This document shows, in pieces, positions 38,369 to 45,918 of a stretch of DNA of 63,731 nucleotides (the first letter of the stretch is position 1; every line of letters starts with the position of its first letter). The notes beneath the pieces were generated by a model. The model did not search any database. It saw only the letters and a program-made list of their open reading frames with translations, and had not been told where the DNA came from. The stretch lies in NCBI GenBank assembly GCA_947628585.1, contig CANRAL010000003.1, forward strand, positions 1-63,731, written 5' to 3'. The position numbers and the translations under genes are program-made. This DNA is from an uncultured Bacilli bacterium (GTDB lineage: Bacteria; Bacillota_I; Bacilli_A; RF39; UBA660).

Positions 38369-38396
38369 AGTTAACATAATATGACATTACATAACA
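38369..38396 (+). other. Left junction site (attL): AGTTAACATAA-TATGAC-ATTACATAACA
   Basis: The first 14 nt are shared with the other two sites. The remaining 14 nt are identical to the internal junction. Confidence 0.7.
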
Positions 38397-38424
38397 ATAA
38401 AAAGGCGCTTTGGAGCGTTTTTTT
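38397..38424. terminator. Bidirectional terminator between rep/att and the RHH gene (copy 1)
   Basis: AAAAAGGCGCT-ttgg-AGCGTTTTTTT, with an A-run and a T-run on either side. Confidence 0.55.
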
Positions 38425-38474
38425 ATTAAAAATATATAAAATATTTGCTTTTTTATAAATGTTTCTAAAAAGGG

Positions 38475-38627
38475 CTAATTTGAGCTTTTTTTGTTATTTT
38501 CTTCAAGCCATTTTAAAATTATTGTTTCTACTAGATTTGATAAAGTTCTATTTTCTTCTTGGGCAATATTATCTAATTCTTTTTTAACATCTTCTGTAGT
38601 TCTAAAAGTTATTGTTGTTGGTTCCAT
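38475..38627 (-). CDS. Ribbon-helix-helix (CopG/Arc-type) transcriptional repressor, 50 aa, not in the ORF track
   Basis: Translation MEPTTITFRTTEDVKKELDNIAQEENRTLSNLVETIILKWLEENNKKSSN, with a beta-strand then two helices. GGAGTG RBS 5 nt before the ATG at 38627. Confidence 0.7.
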   Translation of the reverse strand: MEPTTITFRTTEDVKKELDNIAQEENRTLSNLVETIILKWLEENNKKSSN

Positions 38628-38773
38628 TTTTTCACTCCTTTGTACATTTATTATAAAATGTTTAATTTACTATTGAAATGTACACATGTGTATGCTATTA
38701 TATACTTGTACACAAGAATATTCAATTGTGTATTACTACTGATTTACTCCTAATCAGTAGTTAAGGAGAAATA
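38628..38773. promoter_or_regulatory. Divergent promoter/operator region (copy 1)
   Basis: + promoter TTGAAA (38673) -17- TATTAT (38696). Five TGTRYA motifs at 38641, 38679, 38687, 38707 and 38727. Perfect palindrome ACACATGTGT at 38682-38691 inside the spacer. Hairpin at 38735-38761. Confidence 0.55.
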
Positions 38774-38977
38774 ATGACTGACGAAGAATTTGTATTGGAA
38801 CTTTATTCAGATATCCGCCAAGATTTGAAAAGAATAGTAAACGAAGAAAATGACTATTTTAATGTAAAATTTTGGGGAACAGATATTGTTGAAAGAGTAC
38901 AACATATGTGTCGTTTAAAAAAAGCAATTTTAAAGCGAAAGGAGTGTAATAATGAAAACAAAAGCACTAGTAATTGA
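38774..38977 (+). CDS. Phage protein of unknown function (67 aa)
   Basis: AAGGAG RBS. First gene of the + strand operon. Confidence 0.6.
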   Translation: MTDEEFVLELYSDIRQDLKRIVNEENDYFNVKFWGTDIVERVQHMCRLKKAILKRKECNNENKSTSN

Positions 38978-39161
38978 CCATTACAACTTTGAAAAAAACG
39001 GACGTAAATATGAGGGTTATAAATTTATGGTTAACCTTGGTACTTATGGCTCAGTTTATGCAAATGGACAAAGTGATGACGAATTAAAGCTATTTAATGA
39101 ATATGACGTTATTGTTTCGTATTCTTATGGTAAATGGCTTGTAAATGAAGTTATTAAATAA
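38952..39161 (+). CDS. Small phage protein, possible gene-V-like ssDNA-binding protein (69 aa)
   Basis: AAGGAG RBS. Beta-rich, K/Y/G-rich sequence. The size and the position just before the coat gene fit. The functional call is inference only. Confidence 0.35.
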   Translation: MKTKALVIDHYNFEKNGRKYEGYKFMVNLGTYGSVYANGQSDDELKLFNEYDVIVSYSYGKWLVNEVIK

Positions 39162-39211
39162 CGCAAGTTATTTGATATAAAAAATTAGGAGTAGAAAGGA
39201 GAGCCTAGGTA

Positions 39212-39400
39212 ATGGAAGGCGCAAAAGTTGGAATGCAAGCAATTGTTGAAAGTCTAACGAGTGGTATAACAAGTGCTGGTTTATTTGGTACTGTTGCAGA
39301 AATTATGCCATTTATCGTTATAATGATTGGTTTTGCCTTTGGTTATAAAGTTTTACGCAAAGTCGTAAAAGGTGCTTCTAAGGGTAAAGCTAATATTTAG
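39212..39400 (+). CDS. Major coat protein-like (62 aa)
   Basis: MEGAKVGMQAIVESLTSGITSAGLFGTVAEIMPFIVIMIGFAFGYKVLRKVVKGASKGKANI has an acidic/polar N-terminus, one hydrophobic helix and a K/R-rich C-terminus. AAGGAGAG RBS. A strong hairpin terminator follows directly. Confidence 0.7.
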   Translation: MEGAKVGMQAIVESLTSGITSAGLFGTVAEIMPFIVIMIGFAFGYKVLRKVVKGASKGKANI

Positions 39401-39403
39401 TAG

Positions 39404-39430
39404 GTTAGAGCAATGCTCTAACTTAATTTT
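39404..39430 (+). terminator. Hairpin terminator/attenuator after the coat gene (copy 1)
   Basis: GTTAGAGC-aat-GCTCTAAC stem followed by TTAATTTTT. Confidence 0.65.
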
Positions 39431-39442
39431 TATGGAGGTATT

Positions 39443-39574
39443 ATGAATAAATTAAAAAATGTTTTATTTTATATTAGTGGTTTTTTTATTGGTCTTAGAT
39501 GGAAAATTTGGAACAAGCAAATGGACAGGGCTATAGAGAAATACTATAAAAAATCTAATAAGAAAGGGAAGTAA
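39443..39574 (+). CDS. 43-aa hydrophobic/basic micro-protein (pVII/pIX-like candidate), not in the ORF track
   Basis: MNKLKNVLFYISGFFIGLRWKIWNKQMDRAIEKYYKKSNKKGK. GGAGG RBS 4 nt before the ATG. Confidence 0.55.
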   Translation: MNKLKNVLFYISGFFIGLRWKIWNKQMDRAIEKYYKKSNKKGK

Positions 39575-39576
39575 TA

Positions 39577-39690
39577 ATGTTTGATGTTTGTTTAGTTTTA
39601 TTTAATCAATTAGTACAGTTATTGCCTGATTTAATAGTTTTATATATTTTATTTGACTTAATTGGCGCTTTATTGTTTGGACGGAGGTAA
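39577..39690 (+). CDS. 37-aa hydrophobic micro-protein (pVII/pIX-like candidate), not in the ORF track
   Basis: MFDVCLVLFNQLVQLLPDLIVLYILFDLIGALLFGRR. Starts 2 nt after the previous stop and ends 1 nt before the next ATG. Confidence 0.5.
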   Translation: MFDVCLVLFNQLVQLLPDLIVLYILFDLIGALLFGRR

Positions 39691-39691
39691 T

Positions 39692-40039
39692 ATGGAAAAT
39701 GTATTTTTGCCTGTTGATAATATTAGCGATTATTCTTGTTATTCTATCTCAGCCAATGGCGAATATATTCGTGCGTATAAAGATATTCCACGAAATAACT
39801 CTTCTTCTTCTTATGTTGATTATTACATTAATTCTCATTATTTGGAAGTTCCTGGATACCAAACTTGGAGCCAATACTCTAATTTGCCCGTTTGTATGGA
39901 TAGCAATGTTATAACTAATGATTTTTATTATAGAAATGATTTTGCTGATATTTTAATTATACTTTTAATTTTATCTATTTTTTGTATTTATATACCTTTA
40001 AAAATATTTAGCAAGTTATTTAAAAGAGGTGGCTTATGA
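39692..40039 (+). CDS. Phage membrane protein (115 aa, C-terminal TM anchor)
   Basis: GGAGG RBS before the ATG at 39692 (track start 39662 is TTG). C-terminal ILIILLILSIFCIYIPLKIF followed by basic residues. Confidence 0.6.
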   Translation: MENVFLPVDNISDYSCYSISANGEYIRAYKDIPRNNSSSSYVDYYINSHYLEVPGYQTWSQYSNLPVCMDSNVITNDFYYRNDFADILIILLILSIFCIYIPLKIFSKLFKRGGL

Positions 40040-41046
40040 TAAAATTTAGTTTTAAAACTTTTTTACGTTATGTTTTAATGGCTCTTGCTTTTACTTTAGT
40101 TTCTATATGTTTTAATTCTTGTGATGTTTCAGCATCTGCTCTTCAATTAGAAAATAACGGTACACAATTTTATGTCGGTGGTTCACTTTCAAAGTATTAT
40201 GATTTACTACAAGGCGATACTTTGCCATCTAATTTCACAAATGGAAATACTTTCTGGGTTGGCTTTAAATTTAAGTCTACTGATAGAAATTTAACTAAAG
40301 GTTCTTTTACATCTATAGTTTCTATTTGTTCTACTGGTAATTTTCTATATGATACTGCTGGGCTTGAATATATTGGAACAAATGGTAGATGTGATGTCAA
40401 CGGATATGAGGGTTGGGCTCACTTGTATTTTATAACTTGGACTCCTACCTGGTGGACTGTTACAAAATTAAGTGATACTGTTGTTGATTTGCAATTTGAG
40501 GGTACTTTTAACTCTTATGTAGCTCACGGATTAGGTTATAGTGTTCCTTTTGTTTTTTCTTCTATTGTGACCTATCAAACTGGCGATAGTGAGCTACTTA
40601 ATATTAAACAACAAATAGCTAATGGTAATAAATTGGATAGTTTAAATCAAACGCAACAACAAACTAATGATAAATTAGATGACCTTAACGATAACATTAC
40701 TTCTTCTGATACTTCTTCTGCTGAAAATAAAGGTTCTTCATTTTTTGAAAACTTTGAAGATAAAGATTATGGCTTAAGTGATGTCATTACTATGCCTTTA
40801 TCTTTTATTCAAAAAATTAGTAGTGGTACTTGTACCCCTTTAACAATGCCTATACCTTTTGTAAAATATGATCTAACTCTTCCTTGTATGTCCGAAATAT
40901 ATAGTTCATATTTTGGCGATATATTAAAAATCTATCAAACTATAACTTTTGGAATAATAGCTTATGGTATTTGCATTAATATTTTTGCCACCGTCCGAGG
41001 TTTTAAAAATCCTGACGAAGATAGAGTAGAGGTGTTGGACTTATGA
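40036..41046 (+). CDS. pIII-like minor coat/adsorption protein candidate (336 aa)
   Basis: N-terminal signal peptide (YVLMALAFTLVSICFNSCDVSASA), N/Q/S/T-rich linker (QQQTNDKLDDLNDNITSSDTSSAENKGSS) and C-terminal TM anchor (ITFGIIAYGICINIFATV). ATGA overlap with the upstream stop. Confidence 0.55.
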   Translation: MIKFSFKTFLRYVLMALAFTLVSICFNSCDVSASALQLENNGTQFYVGGSLSKYYDLLQGDTLPSNFTNGNTFWVGFKFKSTDRNLTKGSFTSIVSICSTGNFLYDTAGLEYIGTNGRCDVNGYEGWAHLYFITWTPTWWTVTKLSDTVVDLQFEGTFNSYVAHGLGYSVPFVFSSIVTYQTGDSELLNIKQQIANGNKLDSLNQTQQQTNDKLDDLNDNITSSDTSSAENKGSSFFENFEDKDYGLSDVITMPLSFIQKISSGTCTPLTMPIPFVKYDLTLPCMSEIYSSYFGDILKIYQTITFGIIAYGICINIFATVRGFKNPDEDRVEVLDL

Positions 41047-41342
41047 TTAATGCTTTAATAATGGGTGTATTTAATGTAATCATTAAATTAGTTGATGTTA
41101 TTTTGGCTCCTATTGATTTATTAATATCACAATTTTTGCCTAGTTTATCAAGTGGGATTTCTGCTATAGGTTCAATGTTTGCTTATGCTGGTAATATGCT
41201 CGGATTTTTAGTTTCTTTGACTGGTTTATCTCAAGAAGCTTTAAGTCTTATAGTTGCATATTTTACTTTTAAACTAACCGTACCATTAATGATTTCAGGT
41301 ATTAAAACTGCGGTTCGTTGGTATAATGCATTAAAAATTTAG
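41043..41342 (+). CDS. pVI-like hydrophobic minor coat protein candidate (99 aa)
   Basis: Three hydrophobic segments. ATGA overlap with the upstream stop. Confidence 0.5.
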   Translation: MINALIMGVFNVIIKLVDVILAPIDLLISQFLPSLSSGISAIGSMFAYAGNMLGFLVSLTGLSQEALSLIVAYFTFKLTVPLMISGIKTAVRWYNALKI

Positions 41343-41351
41343 GAGGATTTT

Positions 41352-42002
41352 ATGTTTAAACTATTAATTATTTTACTAATTGTTGCTTTTTTATTTTCAA
41401 TGCGAAAAGTAAAGATTAAATTTAGTACTTTCTTTAAAAAGGGCTTTGCTCCTAAAAGAGGGAAGTTTGGGGTTTATTGTTATTGTGGTAAACAAGGGCA
41501 AGGAAAAACATATTCTGCCGTCGAGTTTTTACTTCATAATAAGAATATGCCTATTTATAGCAATGTTTCTTCTATTAAGGGATTAGATTATACTTATTAT
41601 TCTGGATTCGACGAGTTATTAAACTTGCGAGATAAAACTGACTGTATAATATTTCACGATGAAATATTCACTGCTTTAACTAAGTCTAGTAAAATGACAA
41701 CCGAAGTATTAGACTTTTTATCTCAAATGAGAAAACGACGTATTATTTTTATCACTACTGCTCAAGAGTGGCTCGAAATAAATATAACTTTGCGTCGTTA
41801 TTGTCGTTATCAAATAGAGTGTCATATTTTAAACTTTTTAGGTCTTGGTATTCTTATTAAAGATATGTATGATGCCGAGCAAATGAAATGGAGTAATGAA
41901 GAAAATGAGTATGTGGCGCCTATGATAGAGAAAACTATTAGTAAATGTAATTTAAAGGTTGCAAATAGTTATGATACTTTTGAACAAATAAAAAACAAAT
42001 AA
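41352..42002 (+). CDS. pI/Zot-like morphogenesis P-loop ATPase with N-terminal TM helix (216 aa)
   Basis: TM LLIILLIVAFLFS, Walker A GKQGQGKT, Walker B CIIFHDE. AGGAGG RBS. Confidence 0.6.
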   Translation: MFKLLIILLIVAFLFSMRKVKIKFSTFFKKGFAPKRGKFGVYCYCGKQGQGKTYSAVEFLLHNKNMPIYSNVSSIKGLDYTYYSGFDELLNLRDKTDCIIFHDEIFTALTKSSKMTTEVLDFLSQMRKRRIIFITTAQEWLEINITLRRYCRYQIECHILNFLGLGILIKDMYDAEQMKWSNEENEYVAPMIEKTISKCNLKVANSYDTFEQIKNK

Positions 42003-42097
42003 TATTTTTCTTGGTTGTAGTGTAACACGACCAAGAAAATATTCTCCCCTGATTTTATTGTCAAGAGTGCGAAGCATTTACTTGCTCTTGACAATAA
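42001..42097 (+). other. Two long hairpins in the phage intergenic region (copy 1)
   Basis: Hairpin 1: TTTTCTTGGT (42006-15) / ACCAAGAAAA (42030-39), extendable with one bulge. Hairpin 2: TTATTGTCAAGAG (42055-67) / CTCTTGACAATAA (42085-97), a 13-bp perfect stem with a 17-nt loop. Confidence 0.8.
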
Positions 42098-42189
42098 ACT
42101 TCCTCGTATCATAATTTTGTTTCTTTAAAAAAGAAAAATTTTAATTTTCTCCTTTTTTAAAGGTAATTTTAAAATATAAATATTAATTT

Positions 42190-42266
42190 TTGTCTCTTTT
42201 AAGAGACAACCTTGTTCCAAATTACTATATGTACTACGACTATATAGTAATTTGTGCTTTTTGTGC
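42190..42266 (+). other. Candidate rolling-circle double-strand origin (copy 1)
   Basis: Palindrome TTGTCTCTT-tt-AAGAGACAA at 42190-42209. Hairpin AAATTACTATAT (42219-30) / ATATAGTAATTT (42242-53) with loop GTACTACGACT carrying TACTACGAC (42232-40). Two TTTGTGC direct repeats at 42251 and 42260. Confidence 0.7.
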
Positions 42267-42351
42267 AGAGCCCTGAGAGTGCATATATTCGGGAAATTTT
42301 TGAAAAAAGCGAACAAAATTGTTCGTATTGTATTTTTGGAGGATTTTATTT

Positions 42352-42951
42352 ATGAAAAAAGCTAATTTTAATAATACTAGTAGTGAAGAAATTGTTGATA
42401 AAAGATACAGAAATTTTATGCTCTTATTGTACCCCGAGTGGAGGGACTACGAAAATATACTACAAGATATTAAAGGCAATTTCAAACGTTATGCATATAT
42501 TAAACATATACCTGAAGAATCTGAAAAAAAAGAACACGTTCACTTAATCCTTTCTTTAGATAACCCTAGAACAATAGAAAGCTTATCTAAAAGAGTAGGG
42601 ATACCTAAAAATTTAATACAAAGTATTAAGGGCTTGCGTGGTTCTTGTCGATATTTAGTTCATATGGATAATGAAGAAAAATTTCAATATAATCTCGACC
42701 AGGTAATAGTATCCAATGCATTCAAAGACACGTTTTTTAAGTCTTTCGACGACTTGTTTAGCGAGGAAGAAATGCTTGATAATATTTTCTCATTTATAGA
42801 AGATAACAAACATCTTGATAGAATTATATTGGAAGTTGAACTTGTTAAATTTGTAAATGCAAACGGATTTGCTACAATTTTCAAAAGATACTATAACTCT
42901 ATATGTAAGTATATTAACTATGTTTCCGACAATGAAGTTAACATAATATGA
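42352..42951 (+). CDS. RepB (pMV158/Rep_2-family) HUH rolling-circle replication initiator, 199 aa
   Basis: NFMLLLYPEW (compare FLLYPES in RepB), HUH motif EHVHLIL, Tyr motif CRYLVHMDNE. GGAGG RBS before the ATG at 42352 (track start 42319 is TTG). Inverted repeat CGAACAA-aa-TTGTTCG at 42310-25 in the leader. Confidence 0.75.
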   Translation: MKKANFNNTSSEEIVDKRYRNFMLLLYPEWRDYENILQDIKGNFKRYAYIKHIPEESEKKEHVHLILSLDNPRTIESLSKRVGIPKNLIQSIKGLRGSCRYLVHMDNEEKFQYNLDQVIVSNAFKDTFFKSFDDLFSEEEMLDNIFSFIEDNKHLDRIILEVELVKFVNANGFATIFKRYYNSICKYINYVSDNEVNII

Positions 42952-42963
42952 CATTACATAACA
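42936..42963 (+). other. Internal junction (attP-type site): AGTTAACATAA-TATGAC-ATTACATAACA
   Basis: Identical to the 28-mer at 38369. Overlaps the last codons and the TGA stop of rep copy 1. Confidence 0.7.
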
Positions 42964-42991
42964 ATAAAAAGGCGCTTTGGAGCGTTTTTTT
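42964..42991. terminator. Bidirectional terminator (copy 2)
   Basis: Identical at offset +4567. Confidence 0.55.
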
Positions 42992-43041
42992 ATTAAAAAT
43001 ATATAAAATATTTGCTTTTTTATAAATGTTTCTAAAAAGGG

Positions 43042-43194
43042 CTAATTTGAGCTTTTTTTGTTATTTTCTTCAAGCCATTTTAAAATTATTGTTTCTACTA
43101 GATTTGATAAAGTTCTATTTTCTTCTTGGGCAATATTATCTAATTCTTTTTTAACATCTTCTGTAGTTCTAAAAGTTATTGTTGTTGGTTCCAT
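43042..43194 (-). CDS. RHH repressor, copy 2
   Basis: Identical at offset +4567. Confidence 0.7.
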   Translation of the reverse strand: MEPTTITFRTTEDVKKELDNIAQEENRTLSNLVETIILKWLEENNKKSSN

Positions 43195-43340
43195 TTTTTC
43201 ACTCCTTTGTACATTTATTATAAAATGTTTAATTTACTATTGAAATGTACACATGTGTATGCTATTATATACTTGTACACAAGAATATTCAATTGTGTAT
43301 TACTACTGATTTACTCCTAATCAGTAGTTAAGGAGAAATA
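43195..43340. promoter_or_regulatory. Divergent promoter/operator region (copy 2)
   Basis: Identical at offset +4567. Confidence 0.55.
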
Positions 43341-43544
43341 ATGACTGACGAAGAATTTGTATTGGAACTTTATTCAGATATCCGCCAAGATTTGAAAAGA
43401 ATAGTAAACGAAGAAAATGACTATTTTAATGTAAAATTTTGGGGAACAGATATTGTTGAAAGAGTACAACATATGTGTCGTTTAAAAAAAGCAATTTTAA
43501 AGCGAAAGGAGTGTAATAATGAAAACAAAAGCACTAGTAATTGA
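43341..43544 (+). CDS. Phage protein of unknown function (67 aa), copy 2
   Basis: Identical. Confidence 0.6.
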   Translation: MTDEEFVLELYSDIRQDLKRIVNEENDYFNVKFWGTDIVERVQHMCRLKKAILKRKECNNENKSTSN

Positions 43545-43728
43545 CCATTACAACTTTGAAAAAAACGGACGTAAATATGAGGGTTATAAATTTATGGTTA
43601 ACCTTGGTACTTATGGCTCAGTTTATGCAAATGGACAAAGTGATGACGAATTAAAGCTATTTAATGAATATGACGTTATTGTTTCGTATTCTTATGGTAA
43701 ATGGCTTGTAAATGAAGTTATTAAATAA
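43519..43728 (+). CDS. Possible ssDNA-binding protein, copy 2
   Basis: Identical. Confidence 0.35.
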   Translation: MKTKALVIDHYNFEKNGRKYEGYKFMVNLGTYGSVYANGQSDDELKLFNEYDVIVSYSYGKWLVNEVIK

Positions 43729-43778
43729 CGCAAGTTATTTGATATAAAAAATTAGGAGTAGAAAGGAGAGCCTAGGTA

Positions 43779-43967
43779 ATGGAAGGCGCAAAAGTTGGAA
43801 TGCAAGCAATTGTTGAAAGTCTAACGAGTGGTATAACAAGTGCTGGTTTATTTGGTACTGTTGCAGAAATTATGCCATTTATCGTTATAATGATTGGTTT
43901 TGCCTTTGGTTATAAAGTTTTACGCAAAGTCGTAAAAGGTGCTTCTAAGGGTAAAGCTAATATTTAG
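43779..43967 (+). CDS. Major coat protein-like, copy 2
   Basis: Identical. Confidence 0.7.
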   Translation: MEGAKVGMQAIVESLTSGITSAGLFGTVAEIMPFIVIMIGFAFGYKVLRKVVKGASKGKANI

Positions 43968-43970
43968 TAG

Positions 43971-43997
43971 GTTAGAGCAATGCTCTAACTTAATTTT
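43971..43997 (+). terminator. Hairpin terminator after the coat gene (copy 2)
   Basis: Identical. Confidence 0.65.
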
Positions 43998-44009
43998 TAT
44001 GGAGGTATT

Positions 44010-44141
44010 ATGAATAAATTAAAAAATGTTTTATTTTATATTAGTGGTTTTTTTATTGGTCTTAGATGGAAAATTTGGAACAAGCAAATGGACAGGGCTA
44101 TAGAGAAATACTATAAAAAATCTAATAAGAAAGGGAAGTAA
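44010..44141 (+). CDS. 43-aa micro-protein, copy 2
   Basis: Identical. Confidence 0.55.
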   Translation: MNKLKNVLFYISGFFIGLRWKIWNKQMDRAIEKYYKKSNKKGK

Positions 44142-44143
44142 TA

Positions 44144-44257
44144 ATGTTTGATGTTTGTTTAGTTTTATTTAATCAATTAGTACAGTTATTGCCTGATTTA
44201 ATAGTTTTATATATTTTATTTGACTTAATTGGCGCTTTATTGTTTGGACGGAGGTAA
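44144..44257 (+). CDS. 37-aa micro-protein, copy 2
   Basis: Identical. Confidence 0.5.
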   Translation: MFDVCLVLFNQLVQLLPDLIVLYILFDLIGALLFGRR

Positions 44258-44258
44258 T

Positions 44259-44606
44259 ATGGAAAATGTATTTTTGCCTGTTGATAATATTAGCGATTAT
44301 TCTTGTTATTCTATCTCAGCCAATGGCGAATATATTCGTGCGTATAAAGATATTCCACGAAATAACTCTTCTTCTTCTTATGTTGATTATTACATTAATT
44401 CTCATTATTTGGAAGTTCCTGGATACCAAACTTGGAGCCAATACTCTAATTTGCCCGTTTGTATGGATAGCAATGTTATAACTAATGATTTTTATTATAG
44501 AAATGATTTTGCTGATATTTTAATTATACTTTTAATTTTATCTATTTTTTGTATTTATATACCTTTAAAAATATTTAGCAAGTTATTTAAAAGAGGTGGC
44601 TTATGA
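44259..44606 (+). CDS. Phage membrane protein, copy 2
   Basis: Identical. Confidence 0.6.
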   Translation: MENVFLPVDNISDYSCYSISANGEYIRAYKDIPRNNSSSSYVDYYINSHYLEVPGYQTWSQYSNLPVCMDSNVITNDFYYRNDFADILIILLILSIFCIYIPLKIFSKLFKRGGL

Positions 44607-45613
44607 TAAAATTTAGTTTTAAAACTTTTTTACGTTATGTTTTAATGGCTCTTGCTTTTACTTTAGTTTCTATATGTTTTAATTCTTGTGATGTTTCAGC
44701 ATCTGCTCTTCAATTAGAAAATAACGGTACACAATTTTATGTCGGTGGTTCACTTTCAAAGTATTATGATTTACTACAAGGCGATACTTTGCCATCTAAT
44801 TTCACAAATGGAAATACTTTCTGGGTTGGCTTTAAATTTAAGTCTACTGATAGAAATTTAACTAAAGGTTCTTTTACATCTATAGTTTCTATTTGTTCTA
44901 CTGGTAATTTTCTATATGATACTGCTGGGCTTGAATATATTGGAACAAATGGTAGATGTGATGTCAACGGATATGAGGGTTGGGCTCACTTGTATTTTAT
45001 AACTTGGACTCCTACCTGGTGGACTGTTACAAAATTAAGTGATACTGTTGTTGATTTGCAATTTGAGGGTACTTTTAACTCTTATGTAGCTCACGGATTA
45101 GGTTATAGTGTTCCTTTTGTTTTTTCTTCTATTGTGACCTATCAAACTGGCGATAGTGAGCTACTTAATATTAAACAACAAATAGCTAATGGTAATAAAT
45201 TGGATAGTTTAAATCAAACGCAACAACAAACTAATGATAAATTAGATGACCTTAACGATAACATTACTTCTTCTGATACTTCTTCTGCTGAAAATAAAGG
45301 TTCTTCATTTTTTGAAAACTTTGAAGATAAAGATTATGGCTTAAGTGATGTCATTACTATGCCTTTATCTTTTATTCAAAAAATTAGTAGTGGTACTTGT
45401 ACCCCTTTAACAATGCCTATACCTTTTGTAAAATATGATCTAACTCTTCCTTGTATGTCCGAAATATATAGTTCATATTTTGGCGATATATTAAAAATCT
45501 ATCAAACTATAACTTTTGGAATAATAGCTTATGGTATTTGCATTAATATTTTTGCCACCGTCCGAGGTTTTAAAAATCCTGACGAAGATAGAGTAGAGGT
45601 GTTGGACTTATGA
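44603..45613 (+). CDS. pIII-like protein, copy 2
   Basis: Identical. Confidence 0.55.
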   Translation: MIKFSFKTFLRYVLMALAFTLVSICFNSCDVSASALQLENNGTQFYVGGSLSKYYDLLQGDTLPSNFTNGNTFWVGFKFKSTDRNLTKGSFTSIVSICSTGNFLYDTAGLEYIGTNGRCDVNGYEGWAHLYFITWTPTWWTVTKLSDTVVDLQFEGTFNSYVAHGLGYSVPFVFSSIVTYQTGDSELLNIKQQIANGNKLDSLNQTQQQTNDKLDDLNDNITSSDTSSAENKGSSFFENFEDKDYGLSDVITMPLSFIQKISSGTCTPLTMPIPFVKYDLTLPCMSEIYSSYFGDILKIYQTITFGIIAYGICINIFATVRGFKNPDEDRVEVLDL

Positions 45614-45909
45614 TTAATGCTTTAATAATGGGTGTATTTAATGTAATCATTAAATTAGTTGATGTTATTTTGGCTCCTATTGATTTATTAATATCACAAT
45701 TTTTGCCTAGTTTATCAAGTGGGATTTCTGCTATAGGTTCAATGTTTGCTTATGCTGGTAATATGCTCGGATTTTTAGTTTCTTTGACTGGTTTATCTCA
45801 AGAAGCTTTAAGTCTTATAGTTGCATATTTTACTTTTAAACTAACCGTACCATTAATGATTTCAGGTATTAAAACTGCGGTTCGTTGGTATAATGCATTA
45901 AAAATTTAG
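45610..45909 (+). CDS. pVI-like protein, copy 2
   Basis: Identical. Confidence 0.5.
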   Translation: MINALIMGVFNVIIKLVDVILAPIDLLISQFLPSLSSGISAIGSMFAYAGNMLGFLVSLTGLSQEALSLIVAYFTFKLTVPLMISGIKTAVRWYNALKI

Positions 45910-45918
45910 GAGGATTTT

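Follow-up and report, generated by a model that had tools for sequence, protein, structure and literature searches.

Probable origin and initiator of an inovirus-like prophage

How does a small phage-like element in the chromosome of an uncultured Bacilli bacterium start the replication of its own genome? The window analysed here is a DNA stretch of 63,731 nt (contig CANRAL010000003.1 of assembly GCA_947628585.1, positions 1 to 63,731), which carries a prophage of about 4.6 kb with one sizeable intergenic region (42003-42351), followed by the gene rep. By analogy with the plasmids pMV158 and pE194, the region 42190-42951 very probably holds the plus-strand (double-strand) origin and the initiator gene of this inovirus-like prophage, both of the pMV158/pE194 rolling-circle family. 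The core features are as follows, with positions in the window.

42218-42254, plus strand: origin hairpin, the equivalent of IR-I of pMV158, with a perfect A/T-rich stem and an 11-nt loop
42232-42240, plus strand: nick nonamer TACTACGAC, with a cut predicted at G42238/A42239 by analogy with RepB TACTACG/AC
42251-42257 and 42260-42266, plus strand: two 7-bp direct repeats TTTGTGC, 9 bp from start to start
42352-42951, plus strand: rep copy 1, encoding an initiator of 199 aa of the RepB/Rep_OBD family; the ATG is preceded by GGAGG

The hairpin arms AAATTACTATAT (42219-42230) and ATATAGTAATTT (42242-42253) form a stem of 12 bp, or 13 bp when the pair C42218/G42254 is counted, and the 11-nt loop GTACTACGACT holds the nonamer. 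The first TTTGTGC repeat overlaps the base of the right arm. Both repeats are likely to be bound by Rep, as equivalents of the proximal direct repeats (PDR) of pMV158. Folding of 42185-42275 as single-stranded DNA (ssDNA) yielded -15.4 kcal/mol, compared with -3.5 +/- 1.8 kcal/mol in shuffled sequences (z = -6.7). In the 63.7-kb window TACTACGAC occurs twice against 0.06 expected, both times on the plus strand and once per prophage copy, because the whole element is duplicated; none of 100 shuffled sequences contained it two or more times. A first-pass annotation of the DNA had reported an upstream palindrome, the hairpin, the loop with TACTACGAC, the two TTTGTGC repeats and the 199-aa Rep, and all of them were found again at the positions that it gave. 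It had also named the coding strand as the nick strand, in agreement with the nonamer on the plus strand and with all genes, including every morphogenesis gene, on that same strand except a repressor gene, as is the case in other inoviruses.

Rep is a divergent relative of RepB

The Rep protein matched a single Pfam family, Rep_OBD (PF01719, formerly Rep_2), with 55.7 bits over a cutoff of 24.6 (E = 7e-15) and an alignment spanning profile positions 3-118 of 121. No match of Rep at E<=1 was found for Phage_CRI/gpII (PF05144), Rep_trans (PF02486) or other HUH families, so the profile comparison suggested by the first-pass annotation came out for Rep_2. PF01719 was present in all 120 Rep homologues among the matches listed. 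In the assembly index, the exact Rep protein sequence had no record.

The RepB reference sequence used for comparison is identical to PDB 3DKX chain A. BLASTP aligned Rep with RepB at 24% identity, pairing HVH with HYH and YLVH with YLTH, and aligned it with two plasmid Reps that have TACTACGAC origins at 29% identity over 171-183 residues (E = 4e-17 and 1e-15). Six residues, H52, H62, H64, Y101, H104 and Y113, are invariant across the aligned phage and plasmid Reps, and the 24 phage-clade members compared have them without exception. Their RepB counterparts are H39, H55, H57, Y99, H102 and Y115. Of these, H39, H55, H57, Y99 and Y115 are described as metal ligands, catalytic Tyr and conserved structural Tyr (PMC5030251), a description that does not cover H102. 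The RepB-type motifs quoted by the first-pass annotation are present in Rep, with a spacing that resembles that of RepB without being identical: LLYPE and HxH are separated by 37 residues in Rep vs 43 in RepB, and HxH and the Tyr by 37 vs 42.

An AlphaFold model of Rep built on the clade alignment (predicted local distance difference test, pLDDT, 79) has a beta/alpha domain at residues 19-100 and a helical part at residues 122-193. Rep would accordingly have its HUH nuclease/origin-binding domain at the N-terminus and a helical domain at the C-terminus. Foldseek comparison of the model against the PDB revealed pMV158 RepB in all of the top 8 matches, with full-length alignments of 202-211 columns that include both domains, whereas the next matches, circovirus Rep nuclease domains, had E-values about 1000-fold worse. 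The single family match, the aligned catalytic residues and the top 8 structural matches uphold the earlier proposal of a RepB-like HUH initiator.

Relatives carry the probable origin beside rep

A search of one genome per species gave 19 loci with Rep relatives of 51-74% identity. Every one comes from a metagenome-assembled genome of gut origin; the labels are uncultured Bacilli or Tenericutes, and Clostridia once. At 18 of these 19 loci a perfect hairpin presents TACT[A/G]CGAC in its loop, on the Rep strand and 39-165 nt 5' of the tblastn match to Rep. Stem pairs were counted by a script anchored on the conserved CAAA/TTTG base. A MAFFT alignment of the origins was set aside for this count, because loops of unequal length put its left arms out of register. 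The 19 sequences counted have 14 distinct stems, all fully Watson-Crick paired, with two-sided compensatory changes at 5 stem positions. The loop varies from 9 to 16 nt among the relatives; the nonamer is fixed. The first-pass expectation that related elements would share the hairpin and its loop is thus borne out, with covariation in addition.

The hairpin is followed by TTTG[T/G]G-[C/T][A/T]-TTTTG[T/G]G in all 18 loci where it is intact. In two of them (L013 and L015) both repeats switch jointly from TTTGTG to TTTGGG, in L015 together with the inverted copy at the left-arm base (TTTGGG/CCAAA). Such joint changes would be expected of a protein-binding repeat and not of neutral sequence. In many relatives the gap between nonamer and rep is just 39-76 nt, which leaves no room for a cluster of distal repeats.

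The linkage was also found in the reverse direction. When metagenome contigs were scanned with the origin pattern alone, all seven contigs retrieved carried a Rep homologue (51-65% identity) directly downstream in the same orientation; the Zot-like gene lay upstream in four of them as well. A blastn search of the 66-nt origin against GenBank phages and PLSDB plasmids gave chance-level matches alone, so no nucleotide homology to deposited replicons extends beyond the nonamer. Scans of IMG/VR with Rep peptide patterns and with the origin pattern returned no relatives, and the clade seems to be missing from this viral catalogue. The close relatives (L001-L019 and L030-L036) come from gut metagenome-assembled genomes of rabbit, human (including Hadza) and water deer, and their hosts appear to be uncultured Mollicutes-like gut Bacilli. 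Two of the relatives, L008 (4.4 kb) and L018 (4.0 kb), are contigs with terminal overlaps and are therefore circular.

Comparison with the pMV158 replicon

Plasmid pMV158 (NZ_MZ396393.1) contains one TACTACGAC, at 442-450, in a hairpin loop closed by GGGGGG/CCCCCC arms; copG (655-792) and repB (853-1485) share its strand. RepB cuts 5'-TACTACG/AC-3' solely when the site, which lies in the loop of IR-I, is unpaired (Ruiz-Maso et al., PMC1851628; the nick site is also given in PMC5030251). It contacts the right arm of IR-I and two adjoining 7-bp proximal direct repeats, GTGCCPuA, and three 11-bp distal repeats 84 bp downstream form a high-affinity site (PMC1851628). The nick sequence and the proximal repeats are conserved in all members of the family and the distal repeats in most (PMC1851628), so the latter are not strictly defining. 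Plasmids from L. reuteri and S. epidermidis likewise have a hairpin with TACTACGAC in the loop and the repeats GGTCAAA and GTGCATT abutting it.

The phage module and pMV158 have in common an initiator of the Pfam family Rep_OBD, its catalytic residues and its predicted two-domain fold. They share the identical nonamer TACTACGAC in the loop of an inverted repeat, located 5' of rep on the rep strand, and two 7-bp repeats directly to the right of the hairpin, with a GTGC core in the phage, pMV158 and the S. epidermidis plasmid. The differences lie in the details and in the surroundings. The stems are A/T-rich and 9-14 bp long in the phages, whereas the pMV158 stem is G/C-rich and 6-7 bp long; the phage repeats extend into the right hairpin arm; and the distance between nick site and rep is about 120 nt in the phage compared with about 410 nt in the plasmid. 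The phage has no copG before rep, and neither three 11-bp distal repeats nor an antisense RNA II was found in it. In addition, the carrier is a phage genome at a dif-like site instead of a plasmid with mob and resistance genes. As far as its sequence features tell, the phage module is a complete nic locus (hairpin, nonamer and proximal repeats) in the order and orientation of the plasmids, and a stripped-down replicon.

Proposed mechanism of initiation

Based on the analogy with RepB, we propose a replication cycle for the element. On the supercoiled replicative form, Rep would bind the TTTGTGC repeats, which lie at the foot of the hairpin and immediately 3' of it. This binding would aid the extrusion of the A/T-rich cruciform, so that TACTACGAC becomes single-stranded in the loop. 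Tyr101, together with a metal ion held by H52, H62 and H64, would then cut the plus strand between G42238 and A42239, and the free 3'-OH would be extended by host helicase and polymerase. When one round is complete, the regenerated origin would be cleaved again, and strand transfer there would free a circular plus strand, which could be turned into the replicative form again or be exported via the Zot-like machinery.

Tandem prophages at a dif-like site

The element extends well beyond the origin and rep, and its larger parts are listed here.

38369-47516, plus strand: whole integrated element, two tandem inovirus-like genomes
38369-38382, 42936-42949 and 47503-47516: att core AGTTAACATAATAT, of which 42936-42949 is the copy junction (attP within the tandem array)
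47503-47516: attR core, the end of the integrated element
41352-42002 (copy 1) and 45919-46569 (copy 2), plus strand: Zot/pI-like morphogenesis ATPase of 216 aa, directly upstream of the origin-bearing intergenic region
46785-46821, plus strand: second, identical origin hairpin, with the nonamer at 46799-46807 and the repeats at 46818-46833
46919-47527, plus strand: rep copy 2, with a C-terminus changed by the host junction

The presence of the whole element twice is absent from the first-pass annotation. With 0 mismatches between them, the 4567-bp copies follow each other in the same orientation, at 38369-42935 and 42936-47502. An assembly artefact may lie behind such a perfect duplication; the relative L009 is likewise tandem, with three att cores at 4661-bp spacing. 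The att core at 42936-42949 overlaps the final codons of rep, and Rep ends with ...VNII before the stop in the phage/junction form (42936-42951) and with ...VNIIYII before the stop at the host junction (47503-47527). Both C-termini are seen among database homologues, which indicates that many deposited homologues derive from integrated copies.

The empty site as reconstructed is AGTTAACATAATATATATTATTTAA, a dif-like sequence that matches 18 of 19 bases of what we take to be the B. subtilis dif in reverse complement. The same att core flanks the relatives in L003, L007, L009, L010, L016 and L019. No integrase gene was found in the 4.6-kb genome, and integration is therefore probably carried out by the host Xer recombinases. 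Tandem integration at a dif-like site without an integrase gene is typical of inoviruses such as the CTXphi-type phages. The origins at 42232 and 46799 bracket exactly one genome including the reconstituted attP, so Rep could free a full plus strand from the chromosome without excision. Release of the plus strand from a tandem prophage in this way has been described for CTXphi.

Relation to inoviruses and age of the module

By its genes, the element is an inovirus-like phage with a unit of 4567 bp. Its Zot-like protein matches PHROG 197 'Zot-like' (E = 1e-5) and scores 18.7 bits against Pfam Zot, under the cutoff of 20.3. Bajarodino virus 28, whose circular genome of 4902 nt comes from rodent faeces, has an annotated Zot with 37% identity to it (E = 3e-37). 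The element has the gene order of that virus and of others (PQ006156 and PQ006177 were compared), and their Reps are 28-37% identical to its own. Compared with GenBank inoviruses of common gene order, Rep is 33% and the Zot-like ATPase 37% identical. The initiator and the morphogenesis ATPase have thus drifted apart from their relatives side by side. The Rep module is an old, ancestral trait of the phage clade and not a recent graft. The first-pass idea of a chimera between a pMV158 replicon and an inovirus therefore stands in a deep evolutionary sense, but not as a recent event.

The small gut inoviruses compared were bajarodino viruses (e.g. PQ006156), porcine 'Inovirus sp.' (MT1352xx/MT1353xx), Dulem viruses and the family iPF_00199. 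They share with the element the genome size class of 4.2-5.9 kb, a Rep of one family and the order of the genes, namely Zot, an intergenic origin, rep, a reverse-strand repressor, small open reading frames (ORFs) and proteins of ~337 aa and ~100 aa. A hairpin with a conserved loop, followed by direct repeats and then rep, is common to all. However, the loop of the GenBank gut inoviruses is GGGCTACGTCT instead of TACTACGAC, and their repeats are TGTAATTTA and TGTGTAGC; in bajarodino viruses 28 and 20 (L022:720-810 and L023:940-1060) the loop GGGCTACGTCT is accompanied by three copies of TGTAATTTA and by TGTGTAGC. The pMV158 nonamer was found 5' of rep in 0 of the 4 GenBank inoviruses checked. 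This suggests that nick-site and repeat specificity diversify along with Rep. The GenBank records of these viruses have their proteins annotated but no origin.

The better-known inoviruses resemble the element in design and differ from it in the initiator. The phages Ff (f1/M13), with gpII, and CTXphi, with RstA, share rolling-circle replication from a plus-strand nick and an intergenic origin beside the initiator gene, and CTXphi also shares the tandem prophages at a dif-like site without a phage integrase. Their initiators, however, belong to another family, as the window Rep has no Phage_CRI or Rep_trans match, and gpII is without an HUH motif (PMC8056398).

The passages of Kazlauskas et al. 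2019 on inoviruses assign inovirus Reps to five HUH clusters, freely exchanged with plasmids, and place none of them in the pE194/pMV158 cluster. Supplementary Table 5 of Roux et al. 2019 lists the inovirus protein family iPF_00199, with 71 members, as 'RCR, Rep_2'. This table was the only listing of Rep_2 inoviruses that we found; no main-text paper on Rep_2/PF01719 inoviruses or on bajarodino viruses was found, nor one describing the origin of these phages. GenBank labels for the proteins of relatives are 'plasmid replication protein' and 'replication initiator protein'. A Rep_2 initiator in inoviruses is therefore a link already catalogued at the protein level, a known pattern and no new mechanism. 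The new detail appears to lie in the origin itself, in its exact match to the pMV158 nick sequence and in the support from covariation.

Other features of the intergenic region

Several further features surround the origin.

42006-42039 and 42054-42098: further large hairpins in the intergenic region 5' of the origin
42190-42209: 9-bp palindrome TTGTCTCTT-tt-AAGAGACAA, just 5' of the origin hairpin
42310-42325: palindrome CGAACAAAATTGTTCG between origin and rep, ~30 nt 5' of the rep start codon

The perfect stem of the hairpin at 42054-42098 is 14 bp long and contains TTGACA in both arms; the hairpin is followed by a promoter-like site (42088-42115) that matches 11 of 12 positions. These two hairpins and the promoter-like site are candidates for a minus-strand origin, a packaging signal or the rep promoter. 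A conserved minus-strand origin or packaging hairpin 5' of the origin was dropped as an interpretation, since hairpins are frequent there in the relatives but unrelated in sequence. Similarly, the position of the 9-bp palindrome is often occupied in the relatives by some small hairpin of unrelated sequence. The palindrome CGAACAAAATTGTTCG is possibly an operator, for Rep or for the ribbon-helix-helix (RHH) protein described below. It is found in 5 of 20 loci, namely the window, L001, L002, L010 and L011, and was ruled out as a general equivalent of the bind locus because of this narrow distribution.

Alternative explanations

Several observations weigh against an origin and initiator of the pMV158 type. 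On the protein side, the identity of Rep to RepB is low, and PDB searches based on sequence alone, whether with the single protein or with a 24-sequence profile, did not reach RepB, which means that Rep is highly divergent. The window clade also has a 4-residue deletion at RepB Asp42, where the equivalent residue is ambiguous and E55 is a candidate. The RepB mutant D42A retains about 90% of activity (PMC5030251). On the DNA side, no repeat cluster like the distal direct repeats of the bind locus was found in 42267-42351, and no ORF or copG-type gene lies between origin and rep, so there is no copG-rep operon. No antisense-RNA copy control was obvious, although this was not searched for in depth. 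One locus of the 19, L002, lacks the nonamer and has a disrupted hairpin; at L002:5830-5900 the right arm and both repeats are kept, and the loop and left arm are replaced (…GACTGTAGCGACACTATAAGTTGAGCTAGGACTATAATGTAATTTGTG…), so this origin may be defective or rearranged. The loop GGGCTACGTCT of the bajarodino type makes the exact nonamer a feature of the clade and not of all Rep_OBD inoviruses. Nicking, ssDNA and virions of the element and its relatives are predictions from sequence.

The hairpin, 120 nt 5' of the rep ATG, sits in a likely leader/promoter region, with the promoter-like site 42088-42115 upstream and T-rich sequence behind it, and might instead be an operator, attenuator or terminator of rep, with replication starting elsewhere. 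We consider this extremely improbable. Invariance is not confined to the stem but includes the loop sequence, which coincides with the nick sequence determined biochemically for the family of this Rep; plasmid relatives have the same arrangement at a proven origin; and loops of 9-16 nt with all-A/T stems are unfit for an intrinsic terminator, none of which was called there by a terminator scan. It is very unlikely, too, that the hairpin is mainly a packaging signal or minus-strand origin and the plus strand is nicked at another site. The packaging signal and both origins of the Ff phages are hairpins clustered in one intergenic region, and the hairpin studied here sits within the only sizeable intergenic region of the element. 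However, the two other large hairpins of that region are free for such roles, the nonamer with its flanking repeats is the nic-locus signature of the family of the adjoining Rep, and a conserved nick sequence would be superfluous in a minus-strand origin.

The nature of the element raises a separate doubt, as its Zot/pI matches are weak in Pfam and PHROGs, most of its other ORFs have no family match and its close relatives were not found in IMG/VR. It could accordingly be an integrated rolling-circle plasmid or another non-viral element, with origin and Rep serving plasmid maintenance alone. This is unlikely, given that the gene order is that of faecal GenBank records classed as Inovirus, with a Zot-like protein 37% identical (E = 3e-37) to that of one of them. 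Several small membrane-type ORFs and a 336-aa protein occupy their usual positions, all genes but one are on the same strand, and the tandem integration at a dif-like site without an integrase gene is of the inovirus kind. A pMV158-type origin and initiator in an inovirus-like prophage therefore remains the reading that we prefer.

Implications

Tiny gut inoviruses of this group are widespread but uncultured, and the module gives them a testable origin in which even the bond to be cleaved is predicted. In it the nic-locus design of pMV158, a loop nonamer with adjacent 7-bp repeats, is nearly unchanged in a virus, and the copy-control parts of the plasmid (copG and the distal repeats) are dispensable. 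It adds another case of replication modules common to plasmids and ssDNA phages, and bears on the models that set Reps of the pE194/pMV158 type near the root of ssDNA-virus Reps (Kazlauskas et al. 2019). The origin motif is also a specific probe, as the metagenome contigs retrieved with it all carried Rep.

The Reps of the pMV158 family are reported to nick one another's origins in vitro (PMC1851628). Since the phage and the plasmids have the exact nonamer in common, cross-talk in vivo is conceivable, but we regard it as speculative and rather improbable. If it takes place, the phage Rep could start rolling-circle replication on co-resident pMV158-type plasmids, and plasmid ssDNA might be exported in filamentous particles; plasmid Reps could trigger the prophage or interfere with it. 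A third form could be the excision-free release, with the tandem origins letting Rep liberate a complete plus strand from the chromosome, as in CTXphi.

Neighbouring genes

Downstream of rep lies one gene of opposite orientation.

43042-43194 (copy 1 at 38475-38627), minus strand: RHH protein of 50 aa, divergent from the structural genes

The first-pass annotation had counted this gene as a hallmark of the pMV158 replicon. The protein matches RHH_5 and RHH_1 under the Pfam cutoffs, and its best PHROG matches are Arc-like repressors. Because of its position downstream of rep, its opposite strand and these weak, non-specific matches, the gene is no evidence for a pMV158 replicon, and a role as the CopG homologue was ruled out. 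GenBank relatives have a 'repressor protein' annotated at the same position, and the RHH protein is probably a phage transcriptional repressor outside the rep operon.

A further ORF of 62 aa, at 43779-43967, encodes a protein with a hydrophobic core and a basic C-terminus (…KVLRKVVKGASKGKANI). Pfam and PHROGs gave no match to it; by these sequence features it looks like a major coat protein of the pVIII type.

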